From Escherichia virus TH40, in sequence record MT446411.1: DNA of 64,000 bases; one strand, written 5' to 3'. Below are positions 1,109 through 7,641 of this stretch, one piece after another (positions within the stretch are counted from its first letter, which is position 1; every line of letters starts with the position of its first letter). The position numbers and the translations under genes were made by a program. Below the pieces are notes generated by a model that saw only the letters and a program-made list of their open reading frames with translations, ran no database searches and was not told where the DNA came from.

Positions 1109-1339
1109 TTAAATTTCAGCAGCAGAGATATTAGATTCATCTATCATCTCGGAGGCGGACCCCTTAACGATAGGAACCAATTTGCCATAGAGGTCTTCAT
1201 TATAAGGGTCGTTGATACAGTGCGCATCTTCAAAACGAACACCGTAATCAGACTTCTTATAAACGAGACCGTAAATCTTTGTAAACTTAGCGCGACTAAT
1301 TTTTACGGGCTCATCAGCCATTGGAGCATAATACCACAT
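1109..1339 (-). CDS. hypothetical small protein (76 aa)
   Basis: Reverse ORF with GAGGAAAATATT RBS, early-type promoter upstream at 1368-1397. Confidence 0.45.
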   Translation of the reverse strand: MWYYAPMADEPVKISRAKFTKIYGLVYKKSDYGVRFEDAHCINDPYNEDLYGKLVPIVKGSASEMIDESNISAAEI

Positions 1340-1367
1340 AATATTTTCCTCATTAGTTGACGAGATA

Positions 1368-1397
1368 ATGATACTACGTTTCTTTAGGCTTGTACAC
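1368..1397 (-). promoter_or_regulatory. early sigma70-type promoter (-35 GTGTAC, -10 TATCAT)
   Basis: GTGTAC-N18-TATCAT on reverse strand upstream of 1109..1339. Confidence 0.4.
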
Positions 1398-1442
1398 TAA
1401 ATTTCTGCGCATAAGTCCTCCTATCACATCCTTGTGATTAAA

Positions 1443-1670
1443 TTATTTTCCTAACGAAATACGAGTAGGTTTTTTACCGAAATATTCTTCATAGGAACCA
1501 TCTAAACGGCCCGCTTTAGACCGACAGTACGAATCATACTTTTTGTAATAAGTCAACTCTGTATTGTAACGTGGATGTCTATCAGCCATAATAATACTTA
1601 ACGGCCAACCTTTGGCGTAATCACGAAGACCATTTATTTTACGAATATATCTTTTCTTTAATTTTAACAT
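1443..1670 (-). CDS. hypothetical basic small protein (75 aa)
   Basis: Reverse ORF in co-oriented array; start overlaps upstream gene stop. Confidence 0.4.
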   Translation of the reverse strand: MLKLKKRYIRKINGLRDYAKGWPLSIIMADRHPRYNTELTYYKKYDSYCRSKAGRLDGSYEEYFGKKPTRISLGK

Positions 1671-1888
1671 GAGCTCGGATACCAGATTTTACCATCCGGG
1701 TGAGCAACAAAGGTGCGTCCAGCTTCTTCACCATAACAAGAGCTATTCAACCAGTCTTCAAGACGAACTTCACCATCATAATCGTCGAGCTCAATACCGA
1801 AATCTTGGGCAGAAGCCATATCTTTAACTTTCTTATACAGCGCAGCCAGTTCAAGAGCTGCTTTTTCTAATTCATTAATATCAGACAT
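1664..1888 (-). CDS. small acidic protein, diverged member of tandem paralogue family (C-terminus ...WYPSSC)
   Basis: Reverse ORF; N-terminal helical segment and C-terminal Ser-rich Cys end resemble the three neighbouring paralogues. Confidence 0.5.
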   Translation of the reverse strand: MSDINELEKAALELAALYKKVKDMASAQDFGIELDDYDGEVRLEDWLNSSCYGEEAGRTFVAHPDGKIWYPSSC

Positions 1889-1897
1889 TTTTATTCC

Positions 1898-2095
1898 TTA
1901 GCATTCGTAAGAGGAGGACACCCAAGAGGTACCACTAATAGTAATACAACCGTTATAAAGCGTGATATGTCGTTCTAGGTCACGAACACCGTCGATATAG
2001 ATATCAGCTTCTTCTCGTTCTTCTTTACAAATCTGGATAACGTTTTCAATAGCTGCGGCTGCAGTACGGATTGCACAATCTAATTCACGAGACAT
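1898..2095 (-). CDS. small protein, tandem paralogue family member (C-terminus SWVSSSYEC)
   Basis: Reverse ORF; 3' end DNA near-identical to 2105 and 2396 genes (plus strand ...AGAGGAGGACACCCA...). Confidence 0.55.
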   Translation of the reverse strand: MSRELDCAIRTAAAAIENVIQICKEEREEADIYIDGVRDLERHITLYNGCITISGTSWVSSSYEC

Positions 2096-2104
2096 AATAA
2101 TTCC

Positions 2105-2386
2105 TTAACATTCAGAAGAGGAGGACACCCAACCACCTTTTTCCAGGTCAGTTGTATAGTCATGTTGGTTAACGATAGCGTATTGGGCTTCACCGTAGTT
2201 TTCCCAATGAGCAAGGTCAGCTTTCAGGGCGCCAGGAGAATAATAGTCACCGCCCATACCGCGAGCAGGGTATATATTAAAATGAGTCTCATATTTGTTT
2301 GCAATTTCCTCGGCACGACGAATAGCTTTATGGATATCATTTACTGCGTTGGCCAGTTCTTTATTTTTACTGTAATCGTTCATCAT
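2105..2386 (-). CDS. small protein, tandem paralogue family member (C-terminus GWVSSSSEC)
   Basis: Reverse ORF; conserved C-terminal motif and conserved 3' DNA. Confidence 0.55.
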   Translation of the reverse strand: MMNDYSKNKELANAVNDIHKAIRRAEEIANKYETHFNIYPARGMGGDYYSPGALKADLAHWENYGEAQYAIVNQHDYTTDLEKGGWVSSSSEC

Positions 2387-2395
2387 ACCATTTCC

Positions 2396-2686
2396 TTAAC
2401 ACATCTCAGAAGAGGAGACCCAAGCACCAACGGTAACAACACCATTTTCAACCCGACCGCCATTGGCTTCAATATGATGGGTAAACCATTCAGAGCATTC
2501 ATAACCAACTGGATGATATGTACGGCCGGTGCCGTAATCACCAGTGCTGAATTCGATACCATATTCATCTGCGATTTCTTCACAGTGTTTTTCAATTTCA
2601 GAGGTCTTATTTAGAAGAGAATAGATAGCTTTTTCTGCAGATTTCTCATCATAATACTTGGGGATAGCAATTTCAATTTTATTCAT
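2396..2686 (-). CDS. small protein, tandem paralogue family member (C-terminus AWVSSSEMC)
   Basis: Reverse ORF; conserved C-terminal motif and conserved 3' DNA. Confidence 0.55.
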   Translation of the reverse strand: MNKIEIAIPKYYDEKSAEKAIYSLLNKTSEIEKHCEEIADEYGIEFSTGDYGTGRTYHPVGYECSEWFTHHIEANGGRVENGVVTVGAWVSSSEMC

Positions 2687-3036
2687 GATTTACATTCCTT
2701 AATAAAGGTTTCAAGGTCATTACGTTTTGTTTTGTCTAGGAACTTATTATACTCAGCCATTGCTGAAGCATATCTCTTATATATGGGAGCATTCAAGGCG
2801 TTTGTATAACAGATATCATACACAACCGGGATAAAATAGGCCACAACAGCCGGAGCAATTATCATAAAGAAGCCCATCTCAATAGGCATGACTCCCTCGA
2901 TTGCAGCCATAACCGTGGTCATTACCAGACCAACCAGACCACCGAGCATGGCAGTGACAATCCCTAATAATAAATTGGCACCAATATCATATTCAGCCAA
3001 TTGATAAACATGTGATGCAAGACTAGGCCGTTCCAT
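2683..3036 (-). CDS. small membrane protein (two predicted TM helices)
   Basis: Reverse ORF; start set at internal ATG 3036 with AAGGAGG RBS; hydrophobic stretches LLLGIVTAMLGGLVGLVMTTVMAAI and FFMIIAPAVVAYFIPVV. Confidence 0.5.
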   Translation of the reverse strand: MERPSLASHVYQLAEYDIGANLLLGIVTAMLGGLVGLVMTTVMAAIEGVMPIEMGFFMIIAPAVVAYFIPVVYDICYTNALNAPIYKRYASAMAEYNKFLDKTKRNDLETFIKECKS

Positions 3037-3400
3037 TACGAACCTCCTTAATAAATTCTTCGGCACATTTAATTTTGTGCTCTTCTTGTAGGGAAACACA
3101 TTTTTGTTCCCACTCTTTAACTCGTCCACGATATCCTTTATTCATATGATTTTGATGCCACACATTTATCAATATCATACACAAGACCGTAATAAAAGGA
3201 GCGGCGATTATTAGTGCCCAGGCAACTCCAACACTAATGATATCCATATCCCCACAAAGCACCATCATTATAACCCCAACAATGCATATAGACAGAGCCC
3301 CAAATGGAGGCATAAGGTCTTTATCAATTTTGTCTGCGTATACAAATTTTTCTGGTTTACTTGGTAGATATAGCGTTCGCATTTTGAGCCCCTTTAGCAT
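3023..3400 (-). CDS. small membrane protein (two predicted TM helices)
   Basis: Reverse ORF; likely start at 3400 or 3382 (AAGGGG RBS); hydrophobic segments ICIVGVIMMVLCG and AWALIIAAPFITVLCMILI. Confidence 0.45.
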   Translation of the reverse strand: MLKGLKMRTLYLPSKPEKFVYADKIDKDLMPPFGALSICIVGVIMMVLCGDMDIISVGVAWALIIAAPFITVLCMILINVWHQNHMNKGYRGRVKEWEQKCVSLQEEHKIKCAEEFIKEVRNGTA

Positions 3401-3955: not shown

Positions 3956-4549
3956 TTACTTAAGTGAATTGATGTATTCTTCAATGTCAGCGGATGTGGT
4001 ATCCACACCGACCTGCGGGCCTTTGAAGGTTTCAACACGCATCAGAGTGTCTTCAATATCAATCTTAGTCAATGCAGCGATTTCAACAACATCATCTGCA
4101 GTCGCAATACCCAGGGCAGATACCTTACGAGTTTCGCGGATGTATTCCAGTTTAACAGCTAGTTCCTGACGAGAATCATCCAGCTCTTTAACTTTCAATT
4201 TAATTTCATTACGCATTTCAACATAATCATCTGCCTTCTTACGAAGTTGTTTAGCAGTGCGACGATACAGAAGACCCAGTTTAGCATGGACTTGCACATC
4301 TGCTCCATCAGCAATCAGTTTACGGATTTCACGCTCTTTTGAAGCAGCGAGCTGGTCTTTTTCATTCGCTAACTCGCGGATGCGTTTTTCTTCATTAACA
4401 GACTTAACGTGGGCAGTCTGGAGCTCAGTAATCTTGTCAATCAGGGTAGAAGCCGCTTTGGTATACTGGTCTTCAATAGACAGGTTTTGTGCCATTGCAG
4501 TACCCAGTTTGGAGCGGATGAATTCAACAAGTTTCTTTAAAGTATTCAT
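3956..4549 (-). CDS. hypothetical coiled-coil protein (197 aa)
   Basis: Reverse ORF rich in heptad-like charged/hydrophobic pattern; early-type promoter at 4592-4621. Confidence 0.55.
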
Positions 4550-4591
4550 GGTATTTCCTTCAGTTGGTTAATGTTTTATTATCCAGGGAAC

Positions 4592-4621
4592 ATACTATCA
4601 TGTTCCCGTTAAAGCGTACAC
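4592..4621 (-). promoter_or_regulatory. early promoter (-35 GTGTAC, -10 TAGTAT) with -10 embedded in palindrome GGGAACAT...ATGTTCCC
   Basis: GTGTAC-N18-TAGTAT on reverse strand; 22-bp inverted repeat 4586-4607. Confidence 0.45.
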
Positions 4622-4625
4622 TGAT

Positions 4626-4931
4626 TTAGATTTTATTTTCCTGCACACCATAATACAGTTCATCAGATACAATATTCAGGATGTGGCGAACATATTCATC
4701 ATGGTATTGACAGTCAAAATCAAATGCAACAGTAGTTTCCGCTTCACGAGTGAATTTAACTTGCACATTCAGGTGATTAGTAACGTGAGTTAATTTATCA
4801 GTAAAGAACTCTTTTGCTACCGCCTGCTGGACTTGCACTTTGAACTTGGTGTTGCGAATCATATTTTCAGCAGATGCGAAATTACCAGTTTTATCAAAGT
4901 CAACAAGCGCCAGGTTGATGATGAATTTCAT
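4626..4931 (-). CDS. hypothetical protein (101 aa)
   Basis: Reverse ORF with GGAGAA RBS and early-type promoter at 4971-5000. Confidence 0.5.
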   Translation of the reverse strand: MKFIINLALVDFDKTGNFASAENMIRNTKFKVQVQQAVAKEFFTDKLTHVTNHLNVQVKFTREAETTVAFDFDCQYHDEYVRHILNIVSDELYYGVQENKI

Positions 4932-4970
4932 TTTATTCTCCAGTTTTATTTGGTAACTCAGTATGGAATC

Positions 4971-5000
4971 ATTATGCCTTAAAGCAGGGGGCTTGTATAC
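4971..5000 (-). promoter_or_regulatory. early promoter (-35 GTATAC, -10 CATAAT) with conserved leader CCATACTGAGTTACC
   Basis: Reverse-strand GTATAC-N18-CATAAT; leader motif shared with 5486, 6003 and 43339 promoters. Confidence 0.5.
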
Positions 5001-5011
5001 CCCCTTTTGAA

Positions 5012-5443
5012 TTAAATTTCAAATTCTTTGCGGAAGTTGGAAGCATAAGATTGAACTGATGCTTTGTTGAATCCAAACTCACGCACAATCATATCAATAA
5101 CAGCTCTGCGAGCAGCACCATTAGACATATTAACAGTTTTGAACATATCATAGCATAAATCTTTGTTGCTCATACCGGAGCGTTTAGGTGCCTTACGCTC
5201 AGCTTTTGGTTCAGCTTTAGGAGTAGGTTTAACCTGTCCATCATTCAGACCTTTAAAAATTTTACCCGCCAGAGTTGCCAGTTTAGCAGCTTCGCCACGA
5301 GTGATACCAAATACTGCCGGGTTAAATGAAATACCTTCAGCTGTTAAACGTTTGAAGAACATACGCGCTGCGGATTGCGCTTCAGCTTCAGAAGAGTTGT
5401 TTAATGCCAGTTTAACGTACTTAATCAGTTTTGAAGTTTTCAT
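5012..5443 (-). CDS. hypothetical protein, paralogue A (C-terminal AARRAxID...VQSYASNFRK domain)
   Basis: Reverse ORF, start at internal ATG 5443; C-terminal 35 aa conserved with 5527..5952 product; promoter 5486-5514. Confidence 0.5.
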   Translation of the reverse strand: MKTSKLIKYVKLALNNSSEAEAQSAARMFFKRLTAEGISFNPAVFGITRGEAAKLATLAGKIFKGLNDGQVKPTPKAEPKAERKAPKRSGMSNKDLCYDMFKTVNMSNGAARRAVIDMIVREFGFNKASVQSYASNFRKEFEI

Positions 5444-5485
5444 TTTATTATCCCGTTTGTTTATTTGGTAACTCAGTATGGGATA

Positions 5486-5514
5486 ATTATACACTATCCC
5501 ACCTGGAAGTAAAA
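5486..5514 (-). promoter_or_regulatory. early promoter (-35 GTTTTAC, -10 TATAAT) with conserved leader
   Basis: Reverse-strand GTTTTAC-N17-TATAAT; -10 inside GGGATA...TATCCC palindrome. Confidence 0.5.
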
Positions 5515-5526
5515 CACTTTTCTCAA

Positions 5527-5952
5527 TTATTTTTGAGCTTTGCGGAAGTTAGAAGCATAAGACTGAACAACAGTCTTTTTGATATCATGGGTAGTAACCA
5601 GAACATCAATCAGAGCGCGGCGAGCTGCATTATCATTCATATCAATTTCTGCAAATGCCTGGAAGCAAATGTCACGGGCGTTACCAGATTTGGACTGGAT
5701 TTTTTCTTCTTTAACTTCTTCAATTGGGAATTCAATCATTTCAGCTTGGATTAATTCAATGATGGACTCTTTTGACTGTTTGGTGTTTACCTTCAGTTCA
5801 GAATTAAGGGACTTAGCGATGGCAACAATCTGGGTTGAAGTCAGATGGATAAGGGCATCTTCACGAATGCAGATTTCACATACTTCGTCAGCAACCATTT
5901 TGTTAGTGATGCGGGTAACAGAAAATGCAGAGGTCAGGGTCAGAAAGTTCAT
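5527..5952 (-). CDS. hypothetical protein, paralogue B (C-terminal AARRAxID...VQSYASNFRK domain)
   Basis: Reverse ORF with GGAGAA RBS; promoter 6003-6032. Confidence 0.5.
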   Translation of the reverse strand: MNFLTLTSAFSVTRITNKMVADEVCEICIREDALIHLTSTQIVAIAKSLNSELKVNTKQSKESIIELIQAEMIEFPIEEVKEEKIQSKSGNARDICFQAFAEIDMNDNAARRALIDVLVTTHDIKKTVVQSYASNFRKAQK

Positions 5953-7358: not shown

Positions 7359-7434
7359 TGGTCGAGACAGTAGGAATCGAACCTACGACCCAGGACTTAG
7401 AAGGTCCTTGCTCTTCCTTCTGAGCTATGCCTCG
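7359..7434 (-). tRNA. tRNA-Arg (anticodon UCU), CCA encoded
   Basis: Hand-folded cloverleaf: acceptor CGAGGCA/TGTCTCG, D stem GCTC/GAGC, anticodon stem AGGAC/GTCCT with loop CTTCTAA, T arm GTAGG-TTCGATT-CCTAC, discriminator A, CCA. Confidence 0.85.
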
Positions 7435-7567: not shown

Positions 7568-7641
7568 TGGTGGCCCTGGGTGGAATCGAACCACCATCCA
7601 GCGATTATGAGTCGCTCGCTTGACCGTCCAGCTACAGGGCC
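7568..7641 (-). tRNA. tRNA with CAU anticodon (Met, or Ile as in T4 convention), CCA encoded
   Basis: Hand-folded cloverleaf: acceptor GGCCCTG/CAGGGCC, anticodon stem AGCGA/TCGCT with loop CTCATAA, T arm GGTGG-TTCGATT-CCACC, discriminator A, CCA. Confidence 0.8.

Follow-up and report, generated by a model that had tools for sequence, protein, structure and literature searches.

Cysteine-tailed mini-proteins and a toxin-type nucleotidyltransferase: a probable partnership widespread in lytic phages

INTRODUCTION

What would a T4-type phage do with four consecutive genes for very small, acidic proteins that all end in serines and a cysteine? The question is raised by Escherichia virus TH40, near one end of a 64 000-nucleotide stretch of its sequence record MT446411.1 (this whole stretch is called the window below, and positions refer to it unless another phage is named). 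An earlier note on this DNA read the genes as recent duplicates or products of gene conversion, of the kind expected for host-takeover or anti-defence functions, and the shared tail as a functional tag. That reading missed the link between the family and a second gene, which encodes a MenT-like transferase. Here we describe this combination, a toxin-type nucleotidyltransferase and an array of cysteine-tailed mini-proteins, as an undescribed and widespread phage module whose two parts are probably partners.

MenT/AbiEii-type nucleotidyltransferases are bacterial toxins or abortive-infection effectors which disable tRNA. A relative of these enzymes, apparently active to judge from its conserved residues, is carried by hundreds of lytic phages, and in the Gram-negative lineages examined it is accompanied by an array of small proteins with an unusual Cys-terminated tail. 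If these proteins control the enzyme, or are modified by it, the module would show how phages use a toxin-type transferase, possibly for shutting off the host, manipulating tRNA or countering defences. A new small-protein regulatory or substrate motif would be defined as well, and roles would be found for two Pfam DUFs and two PHROGs which occur widely in therapeutic-candidate phages.

RESULTS AND DISCUSSION

Four cysteine-tailed genes in one string

The four genes lie on the minus strand, and are named here by the types to which they belong. The D-type member (2396–2686, 96 amino acids (aa)) is made up of a short strand, a helix, a loop with the sequence GDYGTGRTYHPVG and the tail GAWVSSSEMC, the codons for W89 to C96 and the stop occupying 2396–2422. 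The C-type member (2105–2386, 93 aa) has a helix, an YPARGMGGDYYSPG loop and the tail GGWVSSSSEC (W86 to C93 plus stop, 2105–2131); its terminal Cys is the only one in the protein. The B-type member (1898–2095, 65 aa) carries MSRELDCAIRTA and ends in SWVSSSYEC (W58 to C65 plus stop, 1898–1924). The D, C and B tails thus share the pattern W-V-S-S-S-x-x-C. The A-type member (1664–1888, 74 aa) ends in KIWYPSSC and has the motif twice, as an internal DWLNSSC-YGE and as the terminal IWYPSSC; the internal W-L-N-S-S-C (residues 46–51, encoded at 1736–1753 on the minus strand) falls in invariant alignment columns. These coordinates and tails agree with those given in the earlier note, as does the acidity of the proteins, for which the predicted pI is 4.3–5.2. 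The observation is clearly not due to chance. Only 7 of the 180 ATG-started open reading frames (ORFs) of at least 50 aa in the window end in Cys; four of these seven are A–D, and the W..SS..C motif is confined to A–D among all 180.

The genes are tightly packed. The start of D overlaps the upstream e.3-like membrane-protein gene (ATGA), and at the D-to-C junction (2387–2398) the TAA stop is fused to GGA to form the Shine–Dalgarno sequence AAGGA, with a 9-nt spacer to the ATG. The junctions from C to B (2096–2107) and from B to A (1889–1900) are of identical design, and a further ORF (1443–1670) begins within the last codons of A. This close packing indicates that the genes form one translationally coupled string, and no convincing promoter or terminator was found within the cluster.

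Linkage to a nucleotidyltransferase gene

Downstream of the cluster, on the same strand, the gene at 130–1089 encodes a protein of 318 aa, counted from a Met at 1086 (a second Met lies at 1089), with matches to DUF7277 (E 4e-26), DUF7275 (E 1e-75) and PHROG 2141. In the window the gap between cluster and enzyme gene is about 575 bp and holds two other, unrelated ORFs (within 1109–1670, minus strand): the one at 1443–1670 (PHROG 7065) and one at 1109–1339 (PHROG 3723). No terminator-like site was found on the minus strand between the start of D (2686) and the enzyme gene.

This arrangement is not peculiar to the window. Of 51 phage loci found by way of the small protein, 50 have a transferase gene (about 300–320 aa) downstream on the same strand; the lone exception is a 3.6-kb contig which stops right after the last small gene. 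The pair persists across at least six genomic contexts: beside e.3/e.4 in the Tevenvirinae, beside nrdD/nrdC.2 in Aeromonas phages, with DprA-like and methyltransferase genes in Phapecoctavirus-like phages, beside pyrophosphatase/HNH genes in Otagovirus, near the primase–helicase in the Acinetobacter Zedzedvirus, and in inverted order in Stenotrophomonas phage Marzo (Menderavirus), where two small genes abut the 3' end of the enzyme gene. The gap is 40–100 bp in Aeromonas, Pseudomonas and Otagovirus phages. The enzyme has the wider distribution of the two, occurring in 731 phage records compared with 399 for the D-type small protein (tblastn).

The modelled structure (pLDDT 92) shows the bilobed Pol-beta fold of MenT-type enzymes, and on this basis the protein is a nucleotidyltransferase of the MenT/AbiEii/ANT(2'') fold which has kept the motifs of that group: hG[GS], [DE]x[DE], a third acidic residue and a Lys in the C-lobe, their equivalence to the MenT residues being judged by position rather than by superposition. 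In an alignment of 48 homologues G5, S6, D24, D26, E68 and K124 are invariant, and K124 is part of a conserved K124..H127-R128 segment. Because G5-S6, D24-x-D26, E68 and K124 are all retained, the enzyme looks catalytically competent. Its DUF7275 part also has conserved His, Asp, Glu and Cys residues. The Pfam scan gave DUF7277 and DUF7275 only, without a match to DUF1814 (AbiEii), and a profile search of PDB sequences with the transferase returned nothing.

No small partners are encoded near the transferase homologues of Streptomyces, Gordonia and Vibrio phages. C271, the TSITSGWFREYAWE block and part of the N-terminal transferase lobe are missing from the partnerless homologues of BillNye, ClubL and K408. 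That loss of these features tracks the absence of partners is suggestive, in a comparison of three lineages which is confounded by phylogeny.

If the transferase acts on tRNA, the tRNA genes upstream in the window may matter. There are two, at 7362–7434 and 7571–7641, on the same (minus) strand, a synteny which is common to T4-like phages generally.

The tails are conserved as protein

The earlier note had described the DNA at the 3' ends of the genes as almost identical, and had named a non-coding element, with ORFs that are not expressed, as the finding that would undo its reading. A direct repeat of 43 nt is indeed present at the ends of B, C and D. It is weaker than had been described: the B and C copies are 86% identical and the D copy has 63% identity to the reference copy. 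The repeat is made up of tail codons followed by the TAA stop and GGA, so that the portion past the stop is the next gene's ribosome-binding site (TAAGGA, 9 nt before the ATG). Such TAA-GGA junctions recur in most related loci.

Beyond the repeat itself, the evidence tells against a non-coding element, and we reject that explanation. For all four genes, dN/dS values against the orthologues in six phages were 0.07–0.39; by gene, ranges of 0.16–0.37 for D, 0.08–0.39 for C and 0–0.33 for B were obtained. In a set of 143 distinct tails, taken from related loci, TCN codons encode 329 of the serines and AGY codons 120. A switch between TCN and AGY requires two nucleotide changes, and only selection at the level of the peptide explains how the tail is conserved across such a mixture. 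A separate candidate, an RNA element or translational-coupling hairpin at the junctions, was also rejected: the junctions fold less stably than shuffled sequences (z +1.0 to +1.5), and there is no Rfam match within the cluster. From these patterns of substitution, A–D are genuine genes under purifying selection.

Gene conversion, which had been proposed for the cluster as a whole, does not hold as a general explanation, as the paralogues' tails differ in synonymous codons in RB69 and in Klebsiella and Edwardsiella phages. Shared tail codons (GTG TCC TCC TCT) were seen only in B and C of the Dhakavirus/Gaprivervirus lineage, where a short, local conversion of these two tails is possible; it would not be family-wide.

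An old phage-specific family

The four proteins are true paralogues, as had been proposed. A, C and D match PHROG 899 (E 6e-10, 2e-20 and 1e-22, respectively) and B matches PHROG 4882 (E 2e-36), and profile comparison with hhalign gives 98.6% for C with D, 88.5% for B with C (over 61 columns) and 47% for A with D.

An alignment of all types was too diverse for scanning loci, and a D-type alignment was used in its place. Five types, and further odd members, were distinguished in 60 related loci. The D type follows the pattern GDYGxGRTYYPKG...GxW[VLI]SSSxMC and the C type YPAYGMGGTYYSPG...GGWVSSSMEC. In the A type (DWLxSSCYGE...DGxIWxxSSC) both copies of the motif are invariant, with W46, S49, C51, W69, S72 and C74 unchanged throughout an alignment of 50 sequences. 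The B type has MSRELDCAVRTA...GWVSSSYxC, and a fifth type, E (GFWYSSSMxxC), occurs in SP18 and many relatives and not in the window. In those phages the E-type member (...GFWFNSSMSC; 4499–4726 of the SP18 locus, L001) sits between B and A, and in the window A follows B directly at the junction (1889–1897).

A Trp stands 7 residues ahead of the terminal Cys (5 in the A type), and the Ser pair at −5/−4 is invariant in the B, C and D types. The general form of the tail, as read from these alignments, is x-[S/A/P]-S-S-x-x-Cys-COOH. The terminal Cys, which the earlier note called invariant, is so in B and D; one of the 18 C-type tails lacks it. It has been lost from a member in Acinetobacter phage Henu6 (locus L057, 1689–1877; C-type-like, with a YGMGGTY loop), which ends in WSASSENS. 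The ORF next to this Cys-less member ends in ITWYASND.

Members have an N-terminal amphipathic helix, a short beta-meander, usually with a Gly-rich YGxGG loop in it, and a flexible tail anchored by the Trp. In the AlphaFold model of A (pLDDT 86), residues 2–27 form a helix, in keeping with the helical N-terminal segment that had been noticed in the sequences, and there are four short strands and a less confident tail.

A locus holds between 1 and 5 copies, and variation in copy number had been named as something to look for. Orthologues of each type are found in phages of Escherichia, Klebsiella, Enterobacter, Edwardsiella, Citrobacter, Aeromonas, Stenotrophomonas and Pseudomonas, including phages outside the Straboviridae. 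Since the paralogues within the window are mutually only 28–32% identical, and since orthologues of every single type occur in distant phage genera, the duplications must be ancient, and the recent duplication suggested earlier can be set aside. Judged by these comparisons, this is an old, phage-specific family with at least five ancient paralogue types.

Several loci show departures from the common pattern. The RB69 reference has a frameshift which divides the D orthologue into ORF139c and ORF138c (L004, 2989–3295); the related Mosigvirus ST0 has an intact D-type gene (L005, 2489–2794). Stephanstirmvirinae-like phages have extra members which sit 1–2 kb upstream of the main trio: longer ones of 137–139 aa ending in HAWCSSSM[SI]C (L013, 596–1009; L047, L048 and L052, about 4338–5290) and, in L047, L048 and L052, very short ones of 52 aa ending in [VQ/VS]WRSSSYDC.

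Searches for known relatives

No characterised family was matched. Scans of the four proteins against Pfam, NCBIfam and PADLOC gave no match, and searches of PDB sequences, with a single sequence or with a 34-sequence profile, gave noise only. Two exhaustive protein searches, one word-indexed over 5.8 billion proteins and one with HMMER over the whole of 1.84 billion representatives, yielded nothing but small phage-like proteins, apart from two spurious repeat proteins. Among bacterial and archaeal genomes there were two weak matches, neither of them a coherent ORF, so that the scan revealed no cellular homologue. A BFVD fold search recovered orthologues only, and a literature search covering the DUFs, the RB69 ORFs, the tail peptide and transferases in connection with phages turned up nothing on the Cys-tail family. 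A resemblance to E2/RWD domains had weak fold support only and was ruled out by profile comparison; the features of a UBC enzyme, namely its fold with the HPN motif and a catalytic Cys that has C-terminal helices after it, were not found in the small proteins.

Membership of the window proteins in PHROG 899 or 4882 and in Pfam DUF7277/DUF7275 is clear. These entries carry no function and mention neither the tail motif nor the linkage of small proteins and enzyme. The PHROG classification also puts the B type apart from A, C and D.

The family had not been recognised as one known from T4, and this was borne out. Neither an ORF with the motif nor a transferase homologue was found in 60 kb of the T4 genome (1–50 000 and 64 000–74 000), and T4 e.2, at the syntenic position, is unrelated to the cluster proteins. 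T4 nrdC.3 (L062, 48933–49859, 308 aa) was considered as a transferase homologue for its size and position and is not homologous; it is an uncharacterised gene of the nrdC region, which is the place of the transferase in Aeromonas phages.

A candidate partner module

MenT toxins add nucleotides to the 3' ends of tRNA, and MenA1, a helical protein of 68 aa encoded upstream of MenT1, both blocks MenT1 and triggers phosphorylation of a Thr in its active site (PMC10435456, PMC11375011). This precedent indicates that small upstream proteins can control this enzyme fold, and that the fold can phosphorylate a Ser/Thr hydroxyl on a protein. With a tentative probability of about 0.4, we favour the reading in which the cysteine-tailed proteins are partners of the transferase. 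They would bind the adjacent DUF7277/DUF7275 enzyme and form one functional module with it, the shared Ser-Ser...Cys arm entering the catalytic cleft as a pseudo-substrate. Alternatively, a nucleotidyl or phosphoryl group may be transferred onto the arm. Through their diverged bodies, the paralogues would lend the complex different regulation or targets. By analogy, the module would be a multi-paralogue counterpart of small antitoxins such as MenA1, and may exert its effect on host or phage tRNA. The fall in model confidence at the last residues of the tail fits a flexible arm.

The module differs from MenAT and AbiE in several respects. The phage enzyme has no DUF1814 match and has a C-terminal DUF7275 domain of its own, and it is accompanied by 1–5 diverged small proteins rather than one. 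MenA1 lacks both the invariant W-x-S-S-S-x-x-C tail and the beta-sheet of the phage proteins. MenAT systems belong to bacterial chromosomes, whereas the phage module belongs to lytic phages.

Several points weigh against the partnership. The broader distribution of the enzyme, and its occurrence without small partners in Gram-positive and Vibrio phages, indicate that it does not need them, and the correlation with features lost from partnerless homologues is, as noted, drawn from three lineages that are confounded by phylogeny. In the window two unrelated ORFs intervene, and linkage within the Straboviridae could be inherited synteny. One antitoxin suffices for simple neutralisation, to which 2–5 conserved paralogues are poorly suited. 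The internal motif of the A type is awkward for a model built on a free C-terminus. Finally, neither in sequence nor in fold do the small proteins resemble MenA1 or AbiEi (COG5340).

Alternative and further readings

The small proteins could instead be stand-alone, host-directed effectors, as the earlier note had it, each paralogue binding a different host or defence protein and the tail being a tag recognised by some host factor, for instance a protease, chaperone or modifying enzyme; that the transferase gene lies close by would then reflect mere co-transcription in an accessory early region. Small, acidic, phage-only proteins in a hyperplastic region are what one would expect of effectors, as are a copy number of 1–5 with losses of single members (the E type here, the D type frameshifted in RB69) and an enzyme that can be found without the small proteins. 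We consider this doubtful, however, as the linkage survives at least six contexts and an inversion of gene order, and as strong purifying selection and ancient orthology are unlike the fast turnover usual in anti-defence genes; nor did the family match a PADLOC model or appear in the literature. It is improbable, too, that these are metal or redox mini-proteins, in which the terminal Cys, the Ser hydroxyls and the carboxylate make up an intermolecular metal site, a disulfide or a persulfide-carrying arm, so that the tail is structural or shuttles sulfur or electrons and is no substrate of the transferase. The only conserved Cys is indeed the terminal one, C-type proteins having no other, the two invariant W..SS.C motifs of the A type could pair within one chain, and in Aeromonas phages the module lies amid thioredoxin and glutaredoxin genes. 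That neighbourhood is restricted to one lineage, a classical site would need more than one Cys per chain, the Cys-less Acinetobacter member keeps W-x-A-S-S, and no fold match to metal or sulfur carriers was found.

The enzyme might also modify the small proteins. In one form of this idea, which we regard as a long shot, the transferase would nucleotidylate or phosphorylate the invariant Ser pair, and elimination followed by attack of the terminal Cys might close a thioether ring at the C-terminus. If true, this would be a phage protein-modification system with several dedicated substrates, and the first protein substrate (neither tRNA nor the enzyme itself) for this fold. Very unlikely, in our estimate, is a second version, in which the small proteins are precursors of modified peptides, the helix being a leader and SSSxxC the core, with serines activated by the transferase and eliminated before the Cys closes the ring. 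Ser-Ser-Ser-x-x-Cys does have the residue logic of lanthionine formation, in a C-terminal Ser/Cys core; this enzyme fold can phosphorylate Ser/Thr (PMC11375011); and DUF7275 has its conserved His, Asp, Glu and Cys residues. Against this, the putative leader is a folded domain with a beta-sheet, the entire protein is conserved and not just the core, and Ser and Cys are adjacent in the A type. Known maturase, protease or exporter domains were absent from the neighbouring genes (Pfam, NCBIfam), and there is no precedent in lytic phages.

Two known systems offer a general likeness. Swinging-arm Cys carriers of the DsrC/TusE type have a flexible C-terminal arm with a conserved Cys, and lanthipeptide cores have a Ser-rich stretch followed by Cys. 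With neither was any sequence or fold similarity found, and their typical partner enzymes are absent from the neighbourhood.

Neighbouring genes

The window comes from a T4-type phage close to Gaprivervirus and Dhakavirus isolates, with 93% identity to ECML-359 and 92% to SP18 over 1400–3200, and the cluster region matches the e.2–e.4 stretch of T4, every gene there being on the minus strand. Directly upstream of the cluster are an e.3-like gene (2683–3036, minus strand) and an e.4-like gene (3023–3400, minus strand), both for predicted membrane proteins; they are always ahead of the cluster in the Tevenvirinae, and are not part of the module in the other phage groups. Further upstream lies a tandem pair of paralogues on the minus strand, at 5012–5494 and 5527–5952 (160 and 141 aa), which share the C-terminal block ...AARRA[VL]ID...VQSYASNFRK....

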